Positions 8,583 to 59,612 of a DNA stretch of 64,000 nucleotides are shown piece after piece; the stretch's first letter is position 1, and every line of letters starts with the position of its first letter. Made by a program: the position numbers and the translations under genes. The notes beneath the pieces were generated by a model. It was not told the origin of the DNA and made no database searches. It saw nothing but the letters and a program-made list of their open reading frames with translations. Origin of the DNA: an uncultured bacterium (GTDB taxonomy: Bacteria > Babelota > Babeliae > Babelales > Babelaceae); contig CAWKFG010000001.1 of the NCBI GenBank assembly GCA_963848965.1, positions 192,001 to 256,000 on the forward strand, read 5' to 3'.

Positions 8583-9740
8583 TCAAAAGTTGGTTGATTG
8601 AGAATGTTTAGATGTTTGTTGGTGTTGTGAGAGCTGATATCTATAAGTAAAGGCTTTATGGCATTCTTTACAAATATAGGGCTTTTCTTTAGTATGTAAC
8701 CTCGTGTGTGCCTCTAAGCTAGTTTTATTAAGAAAGCCTGTCTTACACCCAGGGTAATTGCAAGGGTAGGGCAGTAGGGACTGGGATTTATACACTTGTC
8801 CATCGAAAACAGTGGACATTTCTTTAAAAGTATATGTGGAACATGGATTTTTCTTTAAAGGATATGTATTAGGTGTATTTGTAGATAATTTTGAATCTTG
8901 GGGATGTAGTTTTTGCTGATGTCTTTGTAATTGTTTTCTATGGCTAAATGAGTCGCCGCATTCTTTACAAACATAAGACTTTGTATCTGTATGGCCGTTT
9001 TTATGATCTTTTAAGCTAGCTTTTTGCATAAAAGATTTGGTACAACTAGGATAATCGCATTTATAAGGCTTTTCACCTGTATGCATGCTCTTATTCAATG
9101 AACCGTTATTATCAATGACTTGTTCGTTATCTGTTTGACCAACGATACCGTTAGTAAGTTTTTCATTTAGGCTGTCCCTATCATCTCGTAGGTCGAACTC
9201 AAATAGTAAGTTACCAGCGTTAGATATGTCTTTTTCTTTTCTGTTACCGAGATCTATGCTAGGGACTTCATCTTCATGAAGAAAAGAATAATGCTTTTTA
9301 AGATCTTCAGATGTTGAAAAAGCAAATGAACATAATTTACAGGTATAAGCGTATGTTTCTTTGGCAGAAAAAAGAGAGTAAATGATAGGAGGAGATAAAG
9401 GTGACACTGCTTCTTTGTTTGAGGTAATGTTAGTACTATCTTGTATATCCCATATTTGTTTATGAGATGAATAAAGAGGTTCATGCGTAACAGGACAATC
9501 ATTTGTATTGTTTAGTTCAAAGCTAAGATCGGGAGTATTTAAGGGTTGGTCAAGATTATCAATACTATTGAGTAAAAAAGAAATACTATTTTTATCTTTA
9601 AAAGAAGTATCTAGTTTATGACGTTTGAGAATATTATATGTGCTAGTATCAGATAATGGTCTTTTAGAAGATCCTTCTTGCATGCACTTAAGAGTACAAG
9701 AGAGAAAAAGTGTTGAAAGAAAGATAATTGCTTTTTTCAT
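8583..9740 (-). CDS. Secreted C2H2 zinc-finger protein (5 fingers)
   Basis: Signal peptide MKKAIIFLSTLFLSCTLKC, KRP...KRHK basic patch, five C-x2/4-C-x12-H-x3-5-H fingers, HTGEKPY/HTKEKPY linkers. Confidence 0.85.
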   Translation of the reverse strand: MKKAIIFLSTLFLSCTLKCMQEGSSKRPLSDTSTYNILKRHKLDTSFKDKNSISFLLNSIDNLDQPLNTPDLSFELNNTNDCPVTHEPLYSSHKQIWDIQDSTNITSNKEAVSPLSPPIIYSLFSAKETYAYTCKLCSFAFSTSEDLKKHYSFLHEDEVPSIDLGNRKEKDISNAGNLLFEFDLRDDRDSLNEKLTNGIVGQTDNEQVIDNNGSLNKSMHTGEKPYKCDYPSCTKSFMQKASLKDHKNGHTDTKSYVCKECGDSFSHRKQLQRHQQKLHPQDSKLSTNTPNTYPLKKNPCSTYTFKEMSTVFDGQVYKSQSLLPYPCNYPGCKTGFLNKTSLEAHTRLHTKEKPYICKECHKAFTYRYQLSQHQQTSKHSQSTNF

Positions 9741-38166: not shown

Positions 38167-39723
38167 ATGAAATTCTTTTGTATTGCAGGGCCTATTAAGC
38201 CAGAAATTCATTACTTTGTTCCTCATCGTCTTGATGTTAAGCCTTTAGAGAGACTCATAGATGAGATGCATTACTTTGTATTTCATGCTCCTCGTCAAAC
38301 TGGTAAGACTACGTCGGTAAAGGAGTTTATTCGTTATCTTAACGATAGTGGTAGATATTCAGCACTTTACATAAACATTGAACCGGCACAAGCTGCACGT
38401 GATAATGTAAAAGAGGCTCTTATTGCTATTGTAGAGGAACTAGCAGTTGCTATCGAAGAATATCTGTATAACGATCGTAAGGTTGCGCAGCATTTGAAAG
38501 ATATGATTAGAATCCATCCTGTTACTTTGAATCTTTTAGTGAATGCTTTACGCTTTATAGCCGAGTTGTGTCCAAAGCCAGTTATCCTGTTTATTGATGA
38601 AATAGATTCCTTAATTGGAGACTCACTGCTTTCTGTGCTTAGGCAGATAAGAGCTGGTTTTGGTGAAAGGCCTCACCGATTTCCGCAGTCAATATGCCTT
38701 ATTGGTCTTAGAGATGTAAGGGACTATAGAGTATGGTCTAAAGCATCTGGGGTATATGTCTCTACAAGTAGTCCCTTTAATATTAAGACTGAATCGTTAA
38801 CGCTTTCTAACTTTACTTATGAGCAGGTCAAACACCTTTATCTACAGCATACAACAGAAACTGGACAGCAATTTACAGATGAAGCAATAGACTATGCTTA
38901 CTACTTAACGCAAGGACAACCATGGCTGGTGAATGCTCTTGCTTACCAGGCCTGTTTTAGAGATGTTGCTGATAGAACTATATCTATTACCAAAGAAATA
39001 ATTGAACAATCTAAAAATCAGCTTATTGCTCGTAAAGATACACATTTGGATTCTCTTGTAGATAAACTTAATGAAGAAAGAGTGAGAAAGGTTATAGATA
39101 CTATTATTTCAGGAGAAGTTATTAAGCCGGAGTATATTCAAGATGATGTGCAGTATACGATAGATCTTGGTCTTATCTCTATTAAAGCAGGTAATTTGGC
39201 TATTGCTAATCCCATCTACCAAGAAATAATACCTGCTGTACTTGCTTACACGTTTCAATACAGTATTGTTGAAGAATTAGCTTGGTATAAACGTCTGGAT
39301 GGTTCTCTGGATATGAGTAAGTTGCTTGAATCCTTTACTCAGTTTTTTAGGGAAAATGCAGATGCATGGCTTTCGGATTTTAACTATAAAGAATCAGGTC
39401 CCCATATTCTTATGCTTGCATTTTTGCAAAGAGTGATTAATGGTGGAGGTACCATACATCGAGAATATGCTCTTGGAAGAAAACGTGTAGATCTTTTAAT
39501 TGCTTGGAAAAAGCAAAGAATAGTTATTGAACTTAAGATAAAGCGTGGTGAAGATACACTTAAGCACGGCCTCCAGCAAACAGCAGAGTACATGGATCTT
39601 TGTGGTGCTCATGAAGGACATCTTGTTATTTTTGATAAAGATCCTTGTAAGTCTTGGACTGAGAAAATTTCACAAGAGCTTCTTGTATATAATGCTAAAA
39701 AAATTCATGTCTGGACTCTCTAA
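38167..39723 (+). CDS. AAA-like ATPase with C-terminal PD-(D/E)XK nuclease-like domain
   Basis: HAPRQTGKTT, FIDEID, GQPWLVN, REYALGRKRVDL..VIELK. Confidence 0.85.
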   Translation: MKFFCIAGPIKPEIHYFVPHRLDVKPLERLIDEMHYFVFHAPRQTGKTTSVKEFIRYLNDSGRYSALYINIEPAQAARDNVKEALIAIVEELAVAIEEYLYNDRKVAQHLKDMIRIHPVTLNLLVNALRFIAELCPKPVILFIDEIDSLIGDSLLSVLRQIRAGFGERPHRFPQSICLIGLRDVRDYRVWSKASGVYVSTSSPFNIKTESLTLSNFTYEQVKHLYLQHTTETGQQFTDEAIDYAYYLTQGQPWLVNALAYQACFRDVADRTISITKEIIEQSKNQLIARKDTHLDSLVDKLNEERVRKVIDTIISGEVIKPEYIQDDVQYTIDLGLISIKAGNLAIANPIYQEIIPAVLAYTFQYSIVEELAWYKRLDGSLDMSKLLESFTQFFRENADAWLSDFNYKESGPHILMLAFLQRVINGGGTIHREYALGRKRVDLLIAWKKQRIVIELKIKRGEDTLKHGLQQTAEYMDLCGAHEGHLVIFDKDPCKSWTEKISQELLVYNAKKIHVWTL

Positions 39724-39819: not shown

Positions 39820-40179
39820 ATGAAGAAATGTCTTATTATGGCTCTAGCTTTAGGAATGGCAGCACCTCTTTTTTCAATGGAACCTGGTCAATCTGGAGTT
39901 TCAAATCCTTTCCGTATAGAACGAGCAAAAAAAAGAGCTATGCTAGAAGCTACAAGGCAACAGCTTATGGCTGTTATTCAGCAGTTGGAAGGTAACCTCA
40001 AAGCACAGCAAGTTCAGACAGTTTTTGGAAGACCAAGACCTGATCTTACTGCTCTACAAACGCAGGTAGCAGTTCTTAGACAACAGCTTGCTGGTGTCGA
40101 AAAAGAGCTTGTTGCTTTAACACAACAAGGCCCTGGTCTAGCTCGTGGACAGCAACAACGTACACAAAGCACTCGATAA
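39820..40179 (+). CDS. Small secreted coiled-coil hypothetical protein
   Basis: AAGGAG RBS, signal peptide, Gln-rich heptads. Confidence 0.7.
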   Translation: MKKCLIMALALGMAAPLFSMEPGQSGVSNPFRIERAKKRAMLEATRQQLMAVIQQLEGNLKAQQVQTVFGRPRPDLTALQTQVAVLRQQLAGVEKELVALTQQGPGLARGQQQRTQSTR

Positions 40180-41032: not shown

Positions 41033-41098
41033 TTAAGTATGAGTACGTATATGCGCTCTTAAATTACTAGAAGAGGTAAAGGCTTTATCACATTCATT
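41033..41098 (-). pseudogene. Orphan terminal zinc-finger fragment ([21 protein letters not shown])
   Basis: Direct translation. Followed by the GCAAGAAGCTT tail seen after intact array genes. Confidence 0.8.
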
Positions 41099-41945
41099 AA
41101 GCTTGAGGACAGCGGTGCTTATCTAAGTATAGTTGTGCAGAAAAAGTTCTTTTACATTGTTTACATGTAGCTGTCTTTTGCTTTTCATGAGTAGTTTTAT
41201 GCGCTGCTAAATTAGCCGGATTAATGAACTTTTTATCACATTGGACACAGAGGTGCTGTGCTTCTTCTTTCTTATGTAGTGCTGGTTTGTTCTTGATCAG
41301 AATCTCAACCTCCATACTTTCTGAATCTTCATCTGTAAAAGAGGAATCTTCTCTGTCATTTAAATAATAGTCCTCATCGTCTGAAGAGTCGTACTTCTGC
41401 TTTTTCAATGGTCTGGCCTGCTGTACTTTTTTTAATGCCGCCTTATCCTTTGAATTAGTGCTAATCTGTGTGTCTTCTTTGTGAGGATTGTTAGGAATCC
41501 TACGTTTCTGATCTACCGCTTTAGCTAGCTTTTTGCTTGCTTTACTTGTAGAATTCTCGTTGTTTTGCTGACTTCTTACATTGCCTAGTGTTGATACCAT
41601 CCTCTTTACTAATAACATAGGAGACGGTGTTACAGAAGCTGTTAAGTTATTTTGTTTGTAATAGCTGTTATCGCCTTGAGATAGCGGCTGCTCTTGAAAA
41701 TCAGTTGTATATGATTCTTCTTCTGTCTCACTATCCGCGTGCTGCATGTTTTCTTTTTCTTCTGCGTGAAGGATGGTGATGTGTAATTCTAGATCTTCTT
41801 TTTGCGTAAATTGTAAAGAACATTGCTCACATGCGTATGCTAGCTCTTGATTACTCACTAAATCCTTTTGTCCTTCTGAGCATTGTTCCATTCCATAGAG
41901 AGTGGTTACTGTACCCCAGAGCAAAAGCATTACAATCTTATTCAT
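41097..41945 (-). CDS. Secreted divergent C2H2 zinc-finger protein (2 C2H2 + 1 C2HC)
   Basis: Signal peptide, CEQC..HITILH, CVQC..HKTTH, CKQC..HRC, RPLKKQK basic patch, acidic tract. Confidence 0.8.
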   Translation of the reverse strand: MNKIVMLLLWGTVTTLYGMEQCSEGQKDLVSNQELAYACEQCSLQFTQKEDLELHITILHAEEKENMQHADSETEEESYTTDFQEQPLSQGDNSYYKQNNLTASVTPSPMLLVKRMVSTLGNVRSQQNNENSTSKASKKLAKAVDQKRRIPNNPHKEDTQISTNSKDKAALKKVQQARPLKKQKYDSSDDEDYYLNDREDSSFTDEDSESMEVEILIKNKPALHKKEEAQHLCVQCDKKFINPANLAAHKTTHEKQKTATCKQCKRTFSAQLYLDKHRCPQA

Positions 41946-42092
41946 AATTTCCAATTAATTTTAAAAGTACTTTTACTAGTACAATAGAGTTCTTATCATT
42001 CATATCATTATACTATAGCCTATGATTTTAATTATAATTTGTCAATAATAAAAGTATTGGGACATCAGCTACGCAGAGCATTAAGCCGTATT

Positions 42093-42797
42093 TTACGTGT
42101 TATGAACTTTTTGATGTATTGTTAATTGACCAGAAGTAATGAAGGTTTTACTGCACTCAGTACATACATATGGTTTTTCTCCTGTATGAGTACGTATGTG
42201 CCTTGTTAAAGTACTGGAATCAGCAAAAGTTTTATCGCATTCATTACATACATATGGCTTTATACCAGTATGAGTACGCATATGTATTGTTAATTGGTCA
42301 GACTGAGTAAAAGCTTTATGACATTCAGTACAAACATAGGGTCTTTCTTCGGTATGAGTACGTACGTGTTTTGTTAAGTCACTAGCAGTAGTAAAAGCTT
42401 TGTCGCATTCAGTACAGACATAAGGCTTTTCACCAGTATGACTACGCATATGTGATGTTAAACTATCAGTTCGAGCAAAAGCTTTATGACATTCATTACA
42501 AACATAGGGTCTTTCTCCAGTATGAGTGTATATATGCCTTGTTAACTTGCTAGAAGTAGCGAAAGTTTTACCACATTCAATACATATATGCTCTTTTTTT
42601 TGTCTCTTATGATTAACAGCAGAGTCAACATCATTTTGAGAAGCGTGAAGACGTTTTCTAGAGAGAATAGGTGTGTCATCAGATATGTCTTCTAGTGCTG
42701 TATCTGGTTGTTGAGTGTTATTAGTACCTCTATCTTCTTGCATAGAATAAATAAAATGAGAAAATAAGCAGAGTAAGAATAAAGAGAGCGTTTTCAT
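42093..42797 (-). CDS. Secreted tandem C2H2 zinc-finger protein, 6 fingers
   Basis: Signal peptide, RKR...KRQKK, and 28-aa repeats with TGE[KR]P linkers. Confidence 0.95.
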   Translation of the reverse strand: MKTLSLFLLCLFSHFIYSMQEDRGTNNTQQPDTALEDISDDTPILSRKRLHASQNDVDSAVNHKRQKKEHICIECGKTFATSSKLTRHIYTHTGERPYVCNECHKAFARTDSLTSHMRSHTGEKPYVCTECDKAFTTASDLTKHVRTHTEERPYVCTECHKAFTQSDQLTIHMRTHTGIKPYVCNECDKTFADSSTLTRHIRTHTGEKPYVCTECSKTFITSGQLTIHQKVHNT

Positions 42798-42900
42798 TGG
42801 ATACCTAATGTTTTATTAGAAAACTTATTGTTTAGGTCTTTAAATATAATTATATAGCTTGAAAATAAAAGTGCAAGTAAGAGCACTCAAAGCTTCTTGC
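42798..42900 (-). repeat. 103-bp intergenic promoter unit, copy 1 (type A)
   Basis: Near-identical to 43519-43621 and 48792-48894. Contains TTGCAC-16-TATAAT on the minus strand. Confidence 0.9.
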
Positions 42901-43518
42901 TTAAGTATGAGTATGCATGTGCCTTGTTAACTTACTAGATTCAGCAAAAGCTTTATCACATTCGTTACATACATAAGGCTTTTCACCAGTATGAGTACGC
43001 ATATGTAATGTTAAACTATCAGCTCGAGTAAAAGCTTTATCACATTCAGTACAAACATAGGGTCTTTCTCCGGTATGAGTACGCATATGTTTTGTTAAAG
43101 TACTAGAATTGGTAAAAGCTTTATCACATTTAGTACATATATACGGCTTTTCTCCTGTATGTGTTAGTATATGTTGTGTTAAATTACCAGATTTAGTAAA
43201 AGCTTTATTACATTCACTACATACATACGGTCTTTCTCCGGTATGTGTTAGTATATGTACTGTTAAACTACTAGAATTGGTAAAAGCTTTATCACATTCA
43301 ATACATATATGCTCTTTTTTTTGTCTCTTATGAATAACTGCGGAGTCAACATCATTTTGAGAAGCGTAAGGGCGTTTTCTAGAGAGAATAGGCGCGTCAT
43401 CAGATATGTCTTCTGTTGCTGTATCTGGTTGTTGAGTGTTATTAGTACCTCTATCTTCTTGCATAGAATAAATAAAATGAGAAAATAAGCAGAGTAAGAA
43501 TAAAGAGAGCGTTTTCAT
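42901..43518 (-). CDS. Secreted tandem C2H2 zinc-finger protein, 5 fingers
   Basis: Same architecture as 42093..42797. Confidence 0.95.
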
Positions 43519-43621
43519 TGGATACCTAATGTTTTATTAGAAAACTTATTGTTTAGGTCTTTAAATATAATTATATAACTTGAAAATAAAAGTGCAAGTA
43601 AGAGCATTCAAAGCTTCTTGC
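43519..43621 (-). repeat. 103-bp intergenic promoter unit, copy 2 (type A)
   Basis: Near-identical to 42798-42900. Confidence 0.9.
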
Positions 43622-44827
43622 TTAAGTATGATTACGCATATGCTTTGTTAAATTACCAGCTTGTGCAAAAGCCTTATTACATTCAGCACAAGTGTAAGGC
43701 TTTTCACCGGTATGAGTACGAATGTGCTCTTTTAGTAGATAAGAACGAGTAAAAGCTTTATCACATTCATTACAAACATAGGGTCTTTCATCAGTATGAC
43801 TACGCATATGCTGTGTTAAATTACCAGGTTGTGTAAAGGCTTTATCACATTCAGTACATACATATGGTTTTTCTCCTGTATGACTATGCATATGTATTGT
43901 TAAATGGCCAGACTGAGTAAAAGCTTTGTCACATTCAGTACATACATAAGGCTTTATACCAGTATGAGTACGCATATGTATTGTTAAGGAGCTAGAGTCA
44001 GCAAAGGCTTTATTACATTCACTACAAACATAGGGCTTTTCATCAGTATGAGTACGCATATGCTGTGTTAAATTACCAGATTGTGTAAAGGCTTTATCAC
44101 ATTCACTACATACATATGGTTTTTCTCCTGTATGACTACGCATATGTTTTGTTAAAGTACTGGAATCGGCAAAGAATTTATTGCACTCAGTACATACGTA
44201 TGGTTTGTCACCTGTATGCATACGCATATGTAGTGTTAACTTGCTAGACTCAGCGAAAGCTTTATCACATTCGTTACAAACATAAGGCTTTTCACCAGTA
44301 TGAGTACGCATATGCTGTGTTAAATTACCAGGTTGTGTAAAGGCTTTATCACATTCAGTACATACATATGGTTTTTCTCCTGTATGACTACGCATATGTT
44401 TTGTTAAAGTACTGGAATCGGCAAAGGATTTATTGCACTCAGTACATACATATGGTTTTTCACCAGTATGAGTACGCATGTGTAGTGTTAAATTACCAGC
44501 TTGTGCAAAAGCCTTATTACATTCAGCACAAGTGTAAGGCTTTTCACCGGTATGAGTACGAATGTGCAGTTTTAGTAGATAAGAACGAGTAAAAGCTTTA
44601 CCACATTCAATACATATGTGCTCTTTTTTTTGTCTCTTATCATTAACTGCGGAGTCAATATCATTTTGAAAGTTAGAAGGGCGTTTTCTAGAGAGAATAG
44701 GTGCGTCATCAGATAGATCTTCTAGTGCTGTATCTGGTTGTTGAGTTTCATTTGTGCTAATAGCTTCTTGCATAGAGTAAGTAAAAGGAAAGAATAAGCA
44801 AAGTAAAAATAAAGAGAATGTTTTCAT
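43622..44827 (-). CDS. Secreted tandem C2H2 zinc-finger protein, 12 fingers
   Basis: Same architecture, with internally duplicated fingers (RSYLL-QAGNL pair twice, DSSTLTK-Q[PS]GNLTQ pair twice). Confidence 0.95.
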
Positions 44828-44930
44828 CAAAGACCTACCATCTTATTGGGAAATTTTTTGAGCAAATATTTAAATATAATTATATAAATTGAAAATAAAA
44901 TTGCAAGTAAGAGCATCCAAGACTTCTTGC
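44828..44930 (-). repeat. 103-bp intergenic promoter unit, copy 3 (type B)
   Basis: Closest to 47819-47921. Shares the TTTAAATATAATTATAT..TGAAAATAAAA.TGCAAGTAAGAGCA..CTTCTTGC core with type A. Confidence 0.85.
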
Positions 44931-45734
44931 TTAAGTATGAGTACGCATATGCCTTGTTAAATTACTAGAAGTTGTGAAAGCGTTATCACACTCGGTGCAC
45001 TTATAGGGCCTTTCTCGTGTGTGACTATACATATGTGCTATTAAGTGGCTAGAAGTAGTAAAAGCTCTATTGCATTCATTACATACATACGGCTTTTCTC
45101 CTGTATGTGTTAGTATATGCTTTGCTAAGTTACTAGACTCTGCAAAAGTTTTACCACACTCGTTACATACATACGGCTTCTCACCCGTATGAGTACGCAT
45201 ATGTATTGTTAATTTACCAGATTGTGCAAAAGCTTTATCGCATTCATTACATTTATAAGGTTTTTCTCTTGTATGCGTACGTATATGCTTTGTTAAATCG
45301 CCAGATTCAGCAAAAGCTTTGTTACATTCAGTACATATATATGGCTTTTCGCCTGTATGACCGCGCATATGTAATGTTAAAGAACTAGACTGAGTAAAAG
45401 CTTTATTGCATTCAGGACATATATAGGGCTTTTCTCCTGTATGAGTACGCATATGTACTGTTAAATTTCTAGAGGTTGTAAAAGCTTTATCACATTCATT
45501 ACACTTAAAGGGCCTTTCCCCTGTATGCGTACGCATATGTATCGCCAACTTACTAGGAACACTAAAAGCCTTATTACATTCAACACATATATGTCGTAGC
45601 TTACTTCTTTTATGTCCTCTTTCTTCTTGAGACTCTATCTCACTCTCTTCTCTTTCTCTTTTTGTAGTCTCTCTTTCCATTGCATTGAGCAGACTTACTA
45701 TGAAAAAAAGAGTAAATATCACTATTTTTCTCAT
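44931..45734 (-). CDS. Secreted tandem C2H2 zinc-finger protein, 8 fingers, distinct N-terminus
   Basis: Signal peptide [22 protein letters not shown]...HKRSK, 8 fingers. Confidence 0.95.
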
Positions 45735-45825
45735 ATATTATTCCTTATTATAATATGTAAGGTATCATTAGACTTATGGCAGCATTCCTCACATAGAGCT
45801 TTATACAAAGGTAAGCCTAGAATTA

Positions 45826-46542
45826 TTATTTTGAAAACACGAAATCGAGACTTCCAGAATGGGCCTTGAGCGTAAATGAATTAACTACCCATTGCTTTTT
45901 TGCATCAGCAGAAACTATTTGAAGTTGCTTGCTAAGACGGTGTTTAAGGATATGAACCATATTTTGCGGGTCTCTATCTTTATCTTCATAAAGCTTGCCA
46001 ATAGTAAGATGCATATCAAAATAAGGAAACTGGCCTAAGCTGTCCTGTATCGATTGCGCCACATGAGTAAGCGCAGGTGAAGAAGGAAATCGTAGTACAA
46101 TATAATAAAAATTCTTTTTAGGTATCCCCTTGTAGACATTGCCTTTGTCTCTATCTCCTTTAAAGCAAGTAAATTCTACTGCTTTAAGGTTTTCCGTAAG
46201 ATCAATAGCCCTTGTTTCTTTAGCAATCTTTTCAAGAGCTGGAATATTATATTTCTGCTTTTCCAATAACTGCTTAAGTGTTAACTGAGCATCTGTAATA
46301 TACGCAAGCGATATGTGTGAAGCATACTGGGGAGCATCAAATAGATATTTTATATGCCCTGGTTTGGTCTTTTGTGCTTCATTTTCATGATCAATAATCT
46401 CTTTGACTTGCTCTTGGACTACATGCACAAATTCTTGTACCACCGTAGGTGGCTCAATTAATACGATGACTCCACCAAAAAGATTACTCATGGTTATACA
46501 GAAAATAAGCATTAAAATTAACTTACAATGTGAGCTATACAT
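45826..46542 (-). CDS. Putative secreted 2H phosphoesterase (2'-5' RNA ligase-like fold)
   Basis: Two H-x-[ST]-h motifs (HISL, HLTI) about 100 aa apart. Hydrophobic N-terminus from ATG 46542 (AGGA RBS). Confidence 0.65.
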   Translation of the reverse strand: MYSSHCKLILMLIFCITMSNLFGGVIVLIEPPTVVQEFVHVVQEQVKEIIDHENEAQKTKPGHIKYLFDAPQYASHISLAYITDAQLTLKQLLEKQKYNIPALEKIAKETRAIDLTENLKAVEFTCFKGDRDKGNVYKGIPKKNFYYIVLRFPSSPALTHVAQSIQDSLGQFPYFDMHLTIGKLYEDKDRDPQNMVHILKHRLSKQLQIVSADAKKQWVVNSFTLKAHSGSLDFVFSK

Positions 46543-46664
46543 GGTATATCCTAGATAAATGATTCTATTTAATATATTCTCTATATTACATTTTAATGAT
46601 AATTTGTCAATAATATTAATGGTTAAAGGTATGCTGACGCAAAGCAAATAAAGTAGTGCCCTAC

Positions 46665-46757
46665 TTACTGTTGAGTCTCATTGGAGATAGTAGTTTCTTG
46701 CATAGAATAAGTACAAGGAACGAATATGAAAAGTAAAAGAAGATAGAATATTTGCAT
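46665..46757 (-). pseudogene. Truncated zinc-finger gene head (signal peptide only, MQIFYLLLLFIFVPCTYSMQETTISNETQQ*)
   Basis: Aligns with [31 protein letters not shown] degenerate promoter unit lies upstream (46758-46830). Confidence 0.8.
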
Positions 46758-46862
46758 AGTGCTTAGTCTCTTATTAGAAAGGTTATTGTATAAATGCTTA
46801 AATATAATTATATAATTTGAAAATAAAAAGTAAATGGTTGTCAGAGATAGTACTTTACAGTT

Positions 46863-47032
46863 TTACTTCTTATGAGTGAGCATATGATTTTTAAATTACC
46901 AGATTGAGTAAAAGATCTATCGTACTCAGTGCATACAAAATGCTTTTCTCTAGTATGGGTTCGCATGTGCTATTTCAGTTTATCAGAACGAGCAAAAGCT
47001 TTGTTATATTCAGTACAGACGTAAGGTTGCTC
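46863..47032 (-). pseudogene. Two decayed zinc fingers downstream of the 47033 stop codon
   Basis: Reads EQPYVCTEYNKAFARSDKLK*HMRTHTREKHFVCTEYDRSFTQSGNLK(fs)HMLTHKK*. Confidence 0.85.
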
Positions 47033-47818
47033 TCATGTATGAGTATGCATGTGCCTTGTTAAATTACCAGATTGTGCAAAGGCTTTATTGCATTCACTAC
47101 AAACATAAGGTTTTTCACCACTATGGGTACGTATGTGTTGTGTTAAAGTACTGGAATCGGCAAAGAATTTATTGCACTCAGTACATACGTATGGTTTTTC
47201 ACCAGTATGAGTACGTACGTGTTTTGTTAATTTACCAGCAGTGGTAAAAGCTTTGTCGCATTCAGTACATACATAAGGCTTTATACCAGTATGAGTACGC
47301 ATATGTTTTGTTAATTGGCCAGACTCGGCAAAAGCTTTGTTGCATTCAGTACATGCATAAGTCTTTTCACCGGTATGACTACGCATATGTGATGTTAAAC
47401 TATCAGTTCGAGCAAAAGCTTTATCACATTCAGTACATACATAAGGCTTTATACCAGTATGAGTATGTACGTGTTTTGTTAAGTCACCAGCACTAGTAAA
47501 AGCTTTGTTGCATTCAGTACATACATAAGGCTTTTCACCGGTATGACTACGCATATGTCGTGTTAAACTATCAGAACGGGTAAAAAGTTTATCACATTCA
47601 GTGCAGGCATATTCTTTTTTCTGTTTCTTTTGATTAACCGGAGATTCGATATCATTGTGAGCAGAATAAAGCCGTTTTTTAGGTAATATGGGTATCTCAT
47701 CAGATAGGTCTTCTGTAATAGACTTATCTTGTTGAGCCTCATTGGCGCTAATAGCTTCTTGCATAGAGTAAGCAAAAGGAAAGAATAAGCAAAGTAAAAA
47801 TAAAGAAAACGTTTTCAT
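47033..47818 (-). CDS. Secreted tandem C2H2 zinc-finger protein, 7 intact fingers
   Basis: Signal peptide and PKKR...QKKQKK. Ends at a TGA where the linker Gly is expected. Confidence 0.95.
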   Translation of the reverse strand: MKTFSLFLLCLFFPFAYSMQEAISANEAQQDKSITEDLSDEIPILPKKRLYSAHNDIESPVNQKKQKKEYACTECDKLFTRSDSLTRHMRSHTGEKPYVCTECNKAFTSAGDLTKHVHTHTGIKPYVCTECDKAFARTDSLTSHMRSHTGEKTYACTECNKAFAESGQLTKHMRTHTGIKPYVCTECDKAFTTAGKLTKHVRTHTGEKPYVCTECNKFFADSSTLTQHIRTHSGEKPYVCSECNKAFAQSGNLTRHMHTHT

Positions 47819-47921
47819 CAAAGACCTATCATCTTATTAGGAAATTTTTTGAGTAAATATTTAAATATAATTATATGGCATGAAAATAAAAGTGCAAGTA
47901 AGAGCATTCAAAGCTTCTTGC
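47819..47921 (-). repeat. 103-bp intergenic promoter unit, copy 4 (type B)
   Basis: Similar to 44828-44930. Confidence 0.85.
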
Positions 47922-48791
47922 TTAAGTATGAGTACGCATGTGCTTTGTTAAACCACTGGAATCGGCAAAAGCTTTACCGCATTCACTACATATATAAGGT
48001 TTTTCACCAGTATGAGTACGCATATGTACTGTTAATTTACTAGAGGTGCTAAAAGCTTTATCACATTCAGTACAGACATAAGGCTTTTCACCAGTATGAG
48101 TGCGCATATGTATTGTTAATTGGTCAGACTGAGTAAAAGCTTTATGACATTCATTACAAACATAGGGTCTTTCTTCGGTATGAGTACGTACGTGTTTTGT
48201 TAAGTCACTAGCAGTAGTAAAAGCTTTGTCGCATTCAGTACATGTATAAGGCTTTTCACCAGTATGAGTACGCATATGTACTGTTAATTTACTAGAGGTG
48301 GTAAAAGCTTTATGACATTCAGTACAAACATAGGGTCTTTCTCCGGTATGGGTACGTACGTGTTGTGTTAATTCGCCAGCAGTAGTAAAAGCTTTGTCGC
48401 ATTCAGTACAGACATAAGGCTTTTCACCAGTATGACTACGCATATGTTTTGTTAAACTATCAGTTCGAGTAAAAGCTTTACTACATTCGTTACATACATA
48501 AGGCTTTTCACCAGTATGAGTGTATATATGCCTTGTTAACTTGCTAGAAGTAGCGAAAGTTTTACCACATTCAATACATATATGCTCTTTTTTTTGTCTC
48601 TTATGATTAACAGCAGAGTCAACATCATTTTGAGAAGCGTGAAGACGTTTTCTAGAGAGAATAGGTGTGTCATCAGATATGTCTTCTAGTGCTGTATCTG
48701 GTTGTTGAGTGTTATTAGTACCTTTATCTTCTTGCATAGAATAAATAAAATGAGAAAATAAGCAAAGTAAGAATAAAGAGAGCGTTTTCAT
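47922..48791 (-). CDS. Secreted tandem C2H2 zinc-finger protein, 8 fingers
   Basis: The first ~95 aa are nearly identical to 42093..42797. Confidence 0.95.
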
Positions 48792-48894
48792 TGGATACCT
48801 AATGTTTTATTAGAAAACTTATTGTTTAGGTCTTTAAATATAATTATATAGCTTGAAAATAAAAGTGCAAGTAAGAGCATTCAAAGCTTCTTGC
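48792..48894 (-). repeat. 103-bp intergenic promoter unit, copy 5 (type A)
   Basis: Near-identical to 42798-42900. Confidence 0.9.
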
Positions 48895-49848
48895 TTAAGT
48901 ATGAGTACGCATATGCCGTGTTAATTTGCTAGACTCAGCAAAAGCTTTATAACATTCATTACATATATATGGTTTTTCGCCTGTATGACTATGCATATGT
49001 TTTGTTAAAGTACTTGAATCGGCAAAGAATTTATTGCATTCATTACAAACATAAGGTTTTTCACCAGTATGAGTACGCATATGTACTGTTAATTTACTAG
49101 AGGTGGTAAAAGCTTTGCTACATTCATTACAGACGTATGGCTTTTCATCAGTATGAGTACGAATATGTACTATTAATTTACTAGAGGTGGTAAAAGCTTT
49201 ATCACATTCAGTACATGCATAAGGCTTTTCACCAGTATGAGTACGCATGTGTAGTGTTAAATTACCAGCTTGTGCAAAAGCCTTATTACATTCAGCACAA
49301 GTATAAGGCTTTTCACCGGTATGAGTACGCATATGTAATGTTAAAGAACTAGACTGAGTAAAAGCTTTATTGCATTCAGTACATATATAAGGCTTTTCAC
49401 CAGTATGACTACGCATATGTAATGTTAAACTGTCAGCTCGAGCAAAAGCTTTATCACATTCAGTACAAACATAAAACTTTTCACCAGTATGAATACTTAT
49501 ATGTTTTGTTAATTGGCTAGACTGAGTAAAAGCTTTATCACATTCGTTACATACATAAGGTTTTTCACCAGTATGAGTGTATATATGCCTTGTTAACCTG
49601 CTAGAGGTAGCGAAAGCTTTACCACATTCAATACATATGTGCTCTTTTTTCTGTTTCTTTTGATTAACCGGGGATTCGATATCATTGTGAGTAGAATAAA
49701 GCCGTTTTTTAGGTACTATGGGTATCTCATCAGATAGGTCTTCTGTAATAGACTTATCTTGTTGAGCCTCATTTGTGCTAGTAGCTTCTTGCATAGTATA
49801 AGCTAAAGGAAAAAATATGCAAAGTAAGAAAAGAAAGAACATTTTCAT
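48895..49848 (-). CDS. Secreted tandem C2H2 zinc-finger protein, 9 fingers
   Basis: Signal peptide from ATG 49848. N-terminal spacer shared with 47033..47818. Confidence 0.95.
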
Positions 49849-50059
49849 AGTGCCCATTATCATATTAGAAAATTTATTGTGCAAATGCCTGTCTATAATT
49901 ATATAATTTAAAAATAAAAATGCAAATGCGTGGTTTCAAGATGTGTATACTATAAGCAATCAGGTGTAGAAAAAAAGAAAGAATACTTATTCTTGCTATT
50001 TGTTAAAAGATCTTGGGATACTACCTATGTAAAGAGTTCTATTAAAGGGAGAGCTAGCA

Positions 50060-50482
50060 ATGAGGCATGGACTGCGAGAAGAGATTTTAGAAGCTTGTAA
50101 TAAGTGTATTGTAAGTTGTGAAGAATGTGTAAAATTAGCGCGCCGTTGCTTGGGTACTTGTGAATCATCAGAAGCATCTGCTTGTAAAGAGATGGTTCAA
50201 AAGTATATTGAACATTGTAAAAAATGCATTGAAGCATGTAGAGCGTGTATAGATATATGTAATGAAGGTATTAAGCTTGCTGAAAATGATGAAGAAGCCC
50301 ACTTTTTACAAAAATGTGTAGAAGCTTGTGGTGACTGTATTACTGCATGCCAAACAAGCATTGATAATTGTTCTGTACAAGTAAACTGCATACAGGCTAC
50401 AAAAGAATGTATAGAGCTCTGTAACGAATGTATATCTGCTTGTGATGAATGCATTGAGCATTTAGGCATTAGAGGATTGTAA
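50060..50482 (+). CDS. Cys-rich four-helix-bundle copper-storage-like protein (Csp/DUF326 family)
   Basis: Repeated CxxCxxxCxxC helices in 140 aa. Confidence 0.75.
   Translation: MRHGLREEILEACNKCIVSCEECVKLARRCLGTCESSEASACKEMVQKYIEHCKKCIEACRACIDICNEGIKLAENDEEAHFLQKCVEACGDCITACQTSIDNCSVQVNCIQATKECIELCNECISACDECIEHLGIRGL

Positions 50483-51433: not shown

Positions 51434-51434
<1 letters not shown>
50469..51434 (-). CDS. tilS: tRNA(Ile)-lysidine synthetase
   Basis: GLSGGPDS, AHLDHEWR, LGHHYDDQQET, IRPLL, RNRIRH. Confidence 0.95.
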
Positions 51435-53887
<2,453 letters not shown>

Positions 53888-57950: not shown

Positions 57951-59612
57951 CTAATAAGCACGTTCTGTATAGTATTTATAAAATTCTCGCAAAAGTTCTT
58001 GAGGAAGCAGAATAAGAAGGCCAACAAAATCTCTATACTGAAAAATCTCTTTTTCTTCTAAATTGGGTAACGTAGTATTTCCCTCTTCTACTGGCTCTGT
58101 CTGTATATCTTTAATAGTCTCTACTGCTTTGTGGGTTCCATTTTTAAGCAGAGGGCCTAATTTATTATTTCTTATATCTAAGTTCTTTAAATTGGCTAAT
58201 GTGGCCATTACTAGCAATGGAAGAACTGTTATCTGGTTATTGCTTAGTTTAAGATCTTTTAAATTTTTAAGGGCAGTTATAGTATGCGGTATCTGTGTTA
58301 TGTTATTGCTTGAAAGATTGAGTTCTTTAAGCTTTGTAAGAATAGTTAGATATGAAGGTATTTCTTTTAGCATATTACCTTCAAGATTAAGCTCTTCTAA
58401 ATTACTAAGGACAGTGAGGGCCTCTGGTACTTTTGTTATTTTGTTATGCGCAAGATCAACTTTTGCCACATAAATAGGCAGTAGAGTTTCAAGAGAATTA
58501 GTAAGCGAATTATGTCTTAGTATAAGGCCGTGTAATTTTATAGTAAGCGGTAGATACTTTATCGGGTTTCCAGAAAGATCAAGTCGAGGGTAATTAACTG
58601 CACCTGTAGCTAATTGAAAGTTCTGAGGAACTGTTTGAATGTTGTTATCAGAAAGGTTGAGCCACTCAAGCTTAGGATATGAACTTTGAGGAATTTCTGT
58701 TATCTGATTATGAGAAAGGTTCAGATCAAAAAGATTAGTTAAGAGGGTTAGGTAATGCGGTATATGCGTAATTTTATTCTGTGCCAATTCTAGTGTTCTT
58801 AATTGAGCTAGGGCTGTTATATCTTCTGGTATCTGAGCTATGTGATGGTTACTAAGACGAAGAAACCATAAATTAGTAAGAGCTGTAATGATATGGTGAG
58901 GGATCTCTGTTATTTTAATACCTATGTTGGACAAAGAGAGAGCTTTAAGGTGAGTGAGTATACGTATATATTGAGGAATCTCAGTTATAGGATTATGTGC
59001 AAGATCGAGCGCTCCTAGATTAGTAAAAAGAGTTAGATGTTCAGGGATTTCTGTTAGCTTATTACTTTTAACCTGAAGCTGTTTTAAGCAAAGAGGTAAA
59101 TTATGAGATATCTTTGATAAGTGATTATATGAAAGACAAAGTTGTACAAGGTGAGTGAACGCGGTTAAGTGTGCAGGTAATTCTGTTATATTATTTTTTG
59201 CTAGATCAAGTATTTTAAGGGTAGGATGAGTAGATAAAGCTTCCGGTATACTGTTTATGTTATTGTTTACAAGAGCAAGCATTTTAAGACTGGATGGCAA
59301 TTTGTGCTCTACTGTTGTTATGCTATTGTTTGAAAGCTCTAGGTTTTCGAGCTTACTAAGCTTTGTTAAAAACAATGGTAGTTGGGTTATTTTATTTTTA
59401 CTACAATCAAGCAACTTAAGATTTGTAAGAGTAGTTATTTGATCGGGTATTTCTGTTAACTGCAAATCTACTAGGTAAAGTATGCTATCTACTTGCTGTA
59501 TTTTGTTCATAACAGCGTGTGGTTTTGAGGAAGAATCCTTCTCCATAGCTGAAAGGTGAAAACCAAAAATTGTAGATAAGCTGAATGTTAAACATAATAA
59601 TGAACGTATCAT
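57951..59612 (-). CDS. Secreted leucine-rich-repeat protein
   Basis: Signal peptide, about 19 LRRs, C-terminal LLPQELLREF motif. Confidence 0.9.
   Translation of the reverse strand: MIRSLLCLTFSLSTIFGFHLSAMEKDSSSKPHAVMNKIQQVDSILYLVDLQLTEIPDQITTLTNLKLLDCSKNKITQLPLFLTKLSKLENLELSNNSITTVEHKLPSSLKMLALVNNNINSIPEALSTHPTLKILDLAKNNITELPAHLTAFTHLVQLCLSYNHLSKISHNLPLCLKQLQVKSNKLTEIPEHLTLFTNLGALDLAHNPITEIPQYIRILTHLKALSLSNIGIKITEIPHHIITALTNLWFLRLSNHHIAQIPEDITALAQLRTLELAQNKITHIPHYLTLLTNLFDLNLSHNQITEIPQSSYPKLEWLNLSDNNIQTVPQNFQLATGAVNYPRLDLSGNPIKYLPLTIKLHGLILRHNSLTNSLETLLPIYVAKVDLAHNKITKVPEALTVLSNLEELNLEGNMLKEIPSYLTILTKLKELNLSSNNITQIPHTITALKNLKDLKLSNNQITVLPLLVMATLANLKNLDIRNNKLGPLLKNGTHKAVETIKDIQTEPVEEGNTTLPNLEEKEIFQYRDFVGLLILLPQELLREFYKYYTERAY

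Follow-up and report, generated by a model that had tools for sequence, protein, structure and literature searches.

Tandemly duplicated genes for export-tagged poly-C2H2 zinc-finger proteins in a Dependentiae genome: candidate DNA-binding effectors of a protist parasite

How eukaryote-type zinc-finger genes came to stand in tandem in a bacterial genome, and what their products might do there, are the questions raised by an array in the window analysed here, the 64,000-nucleotide stretch that corresponds to C1:192001-256000 in the genome of an uncultured member of the Dependentiae (G000). This Dependentiae (Babeliales) bacterium is an obligate intracellular parasite of protists. The minus strand between 41097 and 49884 (positions without a contig prefix are those of the window) holds nine open reading frames (ORFs), which comprise seven co-oriented genes, here named Z1 to Z7, one divergent member, Z0, and an unrelated gene, X, within the array. 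The initial annotation had described seven co-oriented genes with 6, 5, 12, 8, 7, 8 and 9 fingers and one divergent member; the Pfam family PF00096 and a regular expression agree on these finger counts, and the coordinates it gave for the seven minus-strand ORFs are correct. What can be stated securely from sequence comparison is that the Z family is a lineage-specific set of tandemly duplicated genes for export-tagged poly-C2H2 proteins whose fingers have been shuffled. That these proteins are Sec-exported effectors which enter the host nucleus and bind DNA is the reading towards which we lean.

The finger region of Z1-Z7 scores 124-300 bits against PF00096 (zf-C2H2), for which the cut-off is 25.2 (E 5.9e-37 to 1e-92), and 138-360 bits against PF13465 (zf-H2C2_2), for which it is 40 (E 2e-41 to 7.3e-112). 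The regular expression C-x2-C-x12-H-x3-H recovers 55 fingers in total, with the same count for each gene as Pfam, and all 55 stand in register as the uninterrupted 28-residue units that had been described. The linkers follow the TGE[KR]P pattern exactly in 33 of 48 cases, the other 15 differing by one residue according to a hand count, and position 4 of the linker is K or R in all 48. At the ligand and core residues (C, C, F, L, H and H) all 55 fingers agree, the entropy being zero, and the recognition helices quoted in the initial annotation are all present. A model of Z2, for which AlphaFold2 (AF2) was given the seven proteins as an alignment, has five beta-beta-alpha units with a predicted local distance difference test (pLDDT) score of at least 90 over residues ~68-205, together with a helix at residues 8-20 and pLDDT below 50 over residues 12-66. 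Among the sequences of the PDB, Z2 matches ZFP568 (E 1.8e-123), and the finger sequences match the DNA-bound structures of ZFP568, Aart, PRDM9 and CTCF. Pfam finds no further domain in Z1-Z7, in line with the earlier observation that KRAB and other effector domains are lacking, and KRAB, SCAN and BTB do not appear among the best 25 Pfam families for each protein. By motif and predicted fold alike, the fingers of Z1-Z7 are classical eukaryote-type C2H2 arrays.

The closest structural counterparts are the eukaryotic Krüppel-type proteins (ZFP568, PRDM9, CTCF and the designed Aart), which have the same 28-residue unit, F/L core and TGEKP-type linkers, which likewise vary at helix positions -1, +3 and +6, and which likewise show clustered tandem genes and finger duplication. 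The Z family differs from them in having a bacterial ribosome-binding site and a Sec-type leader, and in having no introns and no KRAB, SCAN or BTB domain. Ros/MucR proteins are bacterial DNA binders that also use a Cys2His2 zinc site; they have a single, larger, non-modular zinc-finger domain and act inside the bacterium. Assignment of the Z family to Ros/MucR is ruled out by its 5-12 tandem classical fingers behind an export leader.

Fingers of this kind in a bacterial assembly could be explained by an assembly chimera or eukaryotic contamination, and the best-scoring named matches to the finger region are indeed metazoan zinc-finger proteins, at 38-60% identity; the best Dependentiae match to the same region reaches 64%. 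The genomic context speaks against such an origin. The array is situated 41-50 kb into the window, which itself begins 192 kb into a contig of 643,180 bp, with bacterial genes on both sides, in a genome of 1.73 Mb that is assembled in five contigs and is 88.7% complete. The bacterial anchor gene gyrB (51434-53845, minus strand), which has the Gyrase B Pfam domains, is located 1.5 kb from Z7, and the two are contiguous within one 643-kb assembled contig; all 9 of the listed organism-named matches to gyrB are Candidatus Dependentiae or Babeliaceae, with 68-72% identity, and another relative reaches 92%. The Z genes have no introns, are separated by spacers of about 100 nucleotides and carry Shine-Dalgarno (SD)-like sites. 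The G+C content at their third codon positions (0.165-0.235) lies within ~1.2 standard deviations of the genome mean (0.263 +/- 0.080). Their leader is of the genome's own type, with the leader build found in 15 of 17 finger ORFs across two contigs, and relatives carry similar genes on Mb-sized contigs. Among sequencing runs, one DNA run was listed with a 0.07 share of the query words, and no RNA run was listed. A chimeric or contaminant origin is hardly credible, and the array genes are judged to be native to this Dependentiae (Babeliales) genome.

The N-terminal build is the feature that sets these proteins apart from ordinary zinc-finger proteins. In Z1 (42093-42797; six fingers), a leader is followed by M-Q-E, an acidic spacer, the basic patch RKR-x14-KRQKK and the fingers. 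The same build is present in Z2 (42901-43518; five fingers) and Z3 (43622-44830, with a probable ATG start at 44827; 12 fingers), and in Z5 (47033-47821, probable ATG start 47818; seven fingers) with the patch KKR-x14-KKQKK. It recurs in Z6 (47922-48791; eight fingers), whose leader DNA is 99% identical to that of Z1, and in Z7 (48895-49884; nine fingers), which probably starts at 49848 (MKMFF...). These six genes begin with M-K and about 15 uncharged hydrophobic residues that end in Y-S or Y-T, after which come M-Q-E, a disordered acidic run of ~27 residues with the conserved motif E-D-[IL]-S-D-[DE]-x-P-I-[LV], RKR or KKR, 14 residues, KRQKK or KKQKK and the first finger. The initial annotation had ascribed the full build to all seven genes, which is true of six. 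The seventh, Z4 (44931-45734; eight fingers), is 57% identical to Z2, but its leader (MRKIVIF...LNA, then M-E-R) is hydrophobic like the others and otherwise unrelated, ending in N-A, and its spacer is short and of mixed charge, containing KRSK without the first basic cluster of the bipartite form. A K-K/R-x-K/R pattern (KRQK, KKQK or KRSK) nonetheless precedes finger 1 in all seven genes. The divergent Z0 (41097-41954, probable ATG start 41945) has the leader MNKIV...LYG followed by MEQ, and its one N-terminal finger is separated from the C-terminal fingers by a long linker of acidic and basic residues; two fingers are found by the regular expression and two stretches by Pfam (zf-C2H2, E 5.3e-09), and a paralogue is present in the same genome at C1:78219-79064. 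Elsewhere in the window, a further C2H2 gene on the minus strand (8583-9740, equivalent to C1:200583-201740) has a leader, MQE, KRHK and five pattern fingers. This N-terminal region has few counterparts in sequence collections: residues 1-71 gave four weak matches among 1.84 billion cluster representatives, one of them a fragment of 77 residues in which the spacer and basic patch recur, and a search of residues 1-75 against 5.8 billion proteins gave no candidate within 128-410 residues.

The hydrophobic leader, recognised in the initial annotation, is translated, on the evidence of the sequence. AGGT is placed 5-7 nucleotides ahead of the first ATG of the Z genes and is not found ahead of the internal Met, and the ratio of non-synonymous to synonymous differences per site (pN/pS) in the leader is 0.35 among Z paralogues. 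A Met stands directly after the leader in all eight genes Z0-Z7, and by inspection the residues before it agree with the -3/-1 rule of signal peptidase in all eight, position -1 being S, T, A or G and position -3 being I, T, A or L. All eight likewise show a basic n-region and an uncharged h-region of at least about 11 residues.

This leader is not peculiar to the zinc-finger genes. A crude hydrophobicity criterion flags 656 of the 1481 non-overlapping ORFs in the genome as leader-like, and in 157 of these 656 a Met is found directly ahead of the first charged residue, Met making up 1.67% of residues overall. In these 157 ORFs the Met has a median position of 21 and is followed by Glu in 120; position -1 is taken by A, G, S, C or T in 151, and at position -3 a small or aliphatic residue stands in 147 and an aromatic one in none. 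Signal peptidase I recognises small residues of this kind by its -3/-1 rule, and the two positions fit a cut by this enzyme just before the Met. Of the 157, 120 have an SD-like motif ahead of the first Met and only 9 have one ahead of the internal Met, implying that the leader is translated in the set as a whole. The leader of the Z genes belongs to the genome's own export type, consisting of a hydrophobic stretch, a small residue and Met-Glu/Gln. Further examples of this leader type in the window are found at 39820-40179 on the plus strand and at 57951-59612 on the minus strand. No description of a Met-Glu leader type was found in a literature search. Of 99 ankyrin-like ORFs, 77 have a leader of the same type, and it is also found on F-box-like ORFs. 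In Chromulinavorax destructans, signal peptides are reported in 44% of coding sequences and in 78% of ankyrin proteins (PMC6561590).

The position of the Met raises the alternative that the Z proteins stay with the bacterium, whether by an uncleaved anchor, as a periplasmic signal, or as a cytoplasmic form that starts at the internal Met and regulates the bacterium's own genes. A leaderless isoform could be allowed by the Met that directly follows the leader in all eight genes, and the 44% of ORFs flagged by the criterion suggest that not all such proteins leave the cell. The scarcity of SD-like motifs at the internal Met (9 of 157, as against 120 at the first Met) and the fit of the -3/-1 positions to cleavage argue against this retention, as do the eukaryote-type ankyrin-like and F-box-like ORFs that share the leader. 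Moreover, zinc fingers with a K/R patch have no evident use in the periplasm, and TGEKP-type double fingers occur in none of 14 well-known prokaryote genomes. Retention of the proteins is considered unlikely, and export is the preferred reading. For export, genes are present for a single signal peptidase I, for three secretins in a cluster and for two T2SSE ATPases. DsbA and DsbB gave no match in the 88.7%-complete genome; should this absence be real, exported proteins rich in Cys would stay unoxidised in the periplasm.

The family is not confined to this array. The present genome has 17 ORFs with real finger patterns, 15 of which have the leader-Met build, while an 18th pattern match looks like a chance occurrence. 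A second cluster at C1:611851-619643, outside the window, contains five C2H2 ORFs, three of them with the leader-Met build, and includes a protein of 1209 residues with 10 pattern fingers. PF13465 is matched at E <=0.001 in 10 of 41 relatives, this genome included. When genomes were sampled across the phylum, as the initial annotation had proposed with a zinc-finger hidden Markov model, TGEKP-type double fingers (PF13465) were found in 38 of 151 at E <=1e-5 and in 19 of 151 over the curated cut-off; the arrays thus turn up in roughly one sampled genome in four. The present genome has the most PF13465 matches (51), followed by genomes with 44, 28 and 25, and its array is the largest of its kind among the 151. 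In the loci that were inspected, 10 from relatives and 15 of 77 named loci, the Dependentiae genes repeatedly show a leader, a small residue, Met-Glu or Met-Asp, an acidic stretch that often contains W or F, a basic patch and fingers, some of them on Mb-sized contigs. This build is seen in the OFTM184 and Tobar metagenome-assembled genomes (MAGs) and in the relative G002, where each of nine tandem genes (C1:1019500-1033000) encodes, after the leader, A-M-E-I-D, then an acidic stretch that contains W or F, and KRK...SKRPK ahead of 4-10 fingers, the fingers being of a 29-residue C-x4-C / H-x4-H type with an SEERPF linker.

In wider searches, the outcome depended on the query. Z2 alone found no relatives in genome contigs, whereas a three-finger alignment searched against one genome per prokaryotic species gave 310 pattern matches, of which 275 were confirmed. 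The best 80 are mostly from Endozoicomonadaceae, with a few Dependentiae/Babeliales MAGs and some short contigs of doubtful origin. The Endozoicomonadaceae (Endozoicomonas, Kistimonas, Sansalvadorimonas) are likewise host-associated and have many TGEKP-linked fingers, some in tandem on Mb-sized contigs, with 48-62% identity to the Z-family finger consensus. They differ in that no Sec-type leader is present in the loci inspected and in that their hosts are animals, not protists. For Kistimonas, an enrichment of zinc-finger proteins is reported in one study (PMC12491435). In an Endozoicomonadaceae MAG, a 1.58-Mb contig (locus L013) carries four tandem genes with 3-5 fingers, a short common N-terminus and no Sec leader; their common Thr/Ser-rich C-terminal tail of ~60 residues may be a different delivery signal. 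The premise of the initial annotation that bacterial C2H2 proteins have a single finger is too narrow, given poly-finger proteins in 38 of 151 Dependentiae genomes and in many Endozoicomonadaceae.

Variation among the fingers of the seven genes is concentrated in the recognition helices. Entropy over the 55 fingers amounts to 2.63 bits at helix position -1, 1.70 at +2, 2.99 at +3 and 2.80 at +6, so that the constant scaffold and variable helix described earlier are borne out, with peaks at -1, +3 and +6 and zero entropy at scaffold residues. Positions -1, +3 and +6 are the canonical base contacts of the helix. The 55 fingers contain 42 distinct seven-residue helices, and pN/pS is 0.79 at -1, +2, +3 and +6 and 0.26 in the scaffold, although pS is near saturation in this comparison. 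Modules of whole fingers are found again in other genes, with DNA identities of 93-98%, as in finger 2 of Z3 and finger 5 of Z7, finger 4 of Z2 and finger 3 of Z7, and fingers 3-4 of Z1 and 5-6 of Z6. Z3 also has internal duplications, its fingers 1-2 resembling 11-12 and its fingers 3-4 resembling 6-7. In 16 disjoint recent finger pairs, a choice of pairs that biases the test against detecting positive selection, helix codons hold 9 of 48 non-synonymous changes (25% expected) and 6 of 37 synonymous ones. Since modules recur between genes and helix codons show no excess of non-synonymous change, the diversity of the fingers comes mainly from duplication and recombination of whole modules.

Duplication extends beyond single fingers. 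Five spacers (42798-42900, 43519-43621, 44831-44930, 47822-47921 and 48792-48894) are 100-103 nucleotides long and near-identical, and each contains a hairpin with a T-run, TTGCAC-N17-TATAAT and TAGGT a few bases ahead of the first ATG; one terminator-like match was recorded, at 42888-42869. The unit of duplication is the gene together with its spacer. Losses are visible as well. Two decayed fingers (46880-47032, minus strand) continue in frame past the stop of Z5, with the second Cys changed to Tyr in both, and a PF13465 match spans one TAG and one TGA there. A relic of an eighth family member (~46668-46830, minus strand), just upstream of X, retains a TATAAT spacer, an ATG, a leader, MQE and ~10 codons before a stop, and aligns in DNA with the spacer and leader of Z3 and Z5. 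These decayed relics show that there is turnover in the array.

The same relics could be taken as signs that eukaryote-like genes, acquired horizontally and without a specific function, have expanded neutrally or are in decay. A homologue in the relative G039 (contig C13), frameshifted between its leader with the first finger and an 8-finger body, which makes it either a pseudogene or an assembly error, would agree with such decay, as would the failure to detect positive selection. Decay of this sort is difficult to reconcile with seven intact ORFs, with zinc ligands and core residues kept in 55 of 55 fingers, or with the low pN/pS of scaffold (0.26) and leader (0.35). The composition of the genes is, in addition, fully adapted to the genome, and the build recurs in 38 of 151 genomes of a phylum in which genomes are reduced. 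A functionless expansion is very improbable. The arrays also demonstrate that clusters of Krüppel type, which evolve by birth and death, can gain a foothold in a bacterium whose genome is reduced.

What function would such proteins have? In the mechanism that we favour, Sec would carry the protein by means of its leader and signal peptidase I would cut it just before the Met; the protein would then leave the cell by secretin or type II-type machinery, or in vesicles, and reach the host cytoplasm. The basic patch would act as a nuclear localisation signal (NLS), and the finger array would bind long DNA sites in the host nucleus. C2H2 fingers read up to ~3 bp each. By its acidic N-terminal stretch the protein may recruit the transcription machinery of the host; alternatively, it may act by occupancy. 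The presence of a basic patch in all seven genes and in relatives fits nuclear import.

The same exported proteins might instead have a target other than nuclear chromosomal DNA, such as host or viral RNA, mitochondrial DNA, the DNA of a co-infecting giant virus within its cytoplasmic factories or host proteins. Besides DNA, RNA and proteins are also known ligands of C2H2 arrays, and zf-C2H2_jaz, a family of double-stranded-RNA-binding type, is scored by Pfam on all seven genes. The hydrophobic residues that occupy +6 in many fingers (see below) would suit such a target as well. A mitochondrial target is brought to mind by C. destructans, which is reported to be wrapped by the host mitochondrion (PMC6561590). 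The variability of the fingers, however, is greatest at precisely those positions that contact DNA, -1, +3 and +6, and the closest solved relatives are DNA-bound arrays. The K-K/R-x-K/R patch in seven of seven genes, with similar patches in relatives of several lineages, also points to the nucleus, and nothing in the data points to a virus, so that the giant-virus DNA suggested as a target in the initial annotation finds no support. A target of this other kind is possible but distinctly the less likely outcome, and host nuclear DNA is the target assumed in what follows.

Several results weigh against nuclear effectors. A classical bipartite NLS has two basic residues, a linker of 10-12 residues and a basic cluster; the linker in the basic patch of the six genes, at 14 residues, is longer, and basic residues adjoining fingers can also serve simply to raise the affinity for DNA. 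No obvious basic patch is present in some Babeliales relatives that have leader and fingers (L034, L042). At +6, 21 of 55 fingers have a hydrophobic L, I or V, residues that specify no base in the recognition code, and the recent finger pairs gave no excess of non-synonymous change in helix codons. The leader criterion, which flags 656 ORFs, is a blunt one. The conserved TATAAT of the spacers is only suggestive, since a sigma-70 promoter scan of this AT-rich region was not above chance (20 sites against a shuffled expectation of 39.9). As for the route out of the cell, VirB4 was not found in the 88.7%-complete genome, and type III secretion was not searched for. If the species lives in a host vacuole, the vacuole membrane would be a barrier to a Sec/type II substrate; C. 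destructans is reported to lie in the host cytoplasm (PMC6561590).

Among known systems, the nearest functional precedent comes from a fungus. MoHTR2 of Magnaporthe oryzae, in which a C2H2 finger follows a signal peptide, is reported to be nuclear in the host cell, and MoHTR1 and MoHTR2 both have the order of signal peptide then C2H2 finger that is seen in the Z family (PMC12488382). MoHTR2 has 110 residues and one finger domain (PMC12488382), whereas the Z proteins have 5-12 TGEKP-linked fingers. The two fungal proteins further differ from the Z family in that they belong to a eukaryotic pathogen, use the endoplasmic reticulum secretory route and do not form a tandem multigene array.

The bacterial system that is closest in concept is that of the transcription activator-like (TAL) effectors. 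TAL effectors of Xanthomonas and Ralstonia consist of 33-35-residue repeats, each of which reads 1 bp through its repeat-variable diresidue, are delivered by type III secretion and have an NLS and an activation domain at the C-terminus. As in the Z family, the repeats are modular with few variable positions, an NLS (putative in the Z proteins) and an acidic region are present, and paralogues differ in the order of repeats. That the Z proteins are themselves TAL effectors is ruled out by their 28-residue C2H2 repeats and Sec-type leader.

By their sequence features the Z proteins would belong with the eukaryote-like secreted effectors, or nucleomodulins, as a variant. A more far-reaching proposal, which we offer tentatively and think may well prove wrong, is that the Dependentiae possess a counterpart of the TAL-effector system that is based on zinc fingers, in which a phylum-wide, Sec-exported family, retargeted by module shuffling, would rewire nuclear transcription in the protist host, and in which cutting of the leader before Met-Glu/Gln would give every exported effector an N-terminus like those of ordinary eukaryotic cytosolic proteins. 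In eukaryotes, Met-Glu, Met-Asp, Met-Gln and Met-Asn form the NatB acetylation class. Such N-termini could protect the effectors from N-end degradation by the host.

Should the Z proteins enter the nucleus of the host, they would be the first effectors of a bacterium to read DNA with classical eukaryotic zinc fingers, and would also constitute a second natural modular DNA-targeting effector system beside the TAL effectors. How C2H2 fingers recognise DNA has been studied in depth, and protist genomes could therefore be scanned for predicted target sites; predictable targets would be a direct handle on host control by a widespread and almost uncultured phylum. In a literature search outside whose reach lay subscription journals and supplements, no description was found of poly-C2H2 arrays in Dependentiae or as bacterial effectors. 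Dependentiae and C2H2 were not found together in that literature, Dependentiae with 'zinc finger' led only to an unrelated review, and the accessible text of the C. destructans paper (PMC6561590) has 0 occurrences of 'zinc finger' or 'C2H2'.

The gene that interrupts the array, X (45826-46647, minus strand), probably starts at 46545 and has an export-type leader and two H-x-[ST] motifs. No Pfam family matches it at E 0.01; a sub-threshold match is to 2_5_RNA_ligase2 (E 0.031). Atlas feature matches lead to clusters of LigT, 2'-5' RNA ligase and Acb1 (score 0.93), and an AF2 single-sequence model was unusable (mean pLDDT 34.9). X may be a secreted 2H phosphoesterase. It is situated behind the relic promoter and leader of the dead zinc-finger gene described above.

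Other genes of the window lie on either side of the array. On the plus strand, 38167-39723 encodes a 518-residue protein that resembles AAA ATPases at its N-terminus (AAA_35, E 1.3e-10) and, at its C-terminus, weakly matches PD-(D/E)XK nucleases, and downstream of it are two small leader-bearing ORFs that belong to no Pfam family. On the other side, 50060-50482 (plus strand) encodes a Cys-rich DUF326 protein of 140 residues (E 2.5e-06), and the 3' end of this gene overlaps a convergent PP-loop ORF, putatively tilS according to the initial annotation, by 14 bases.

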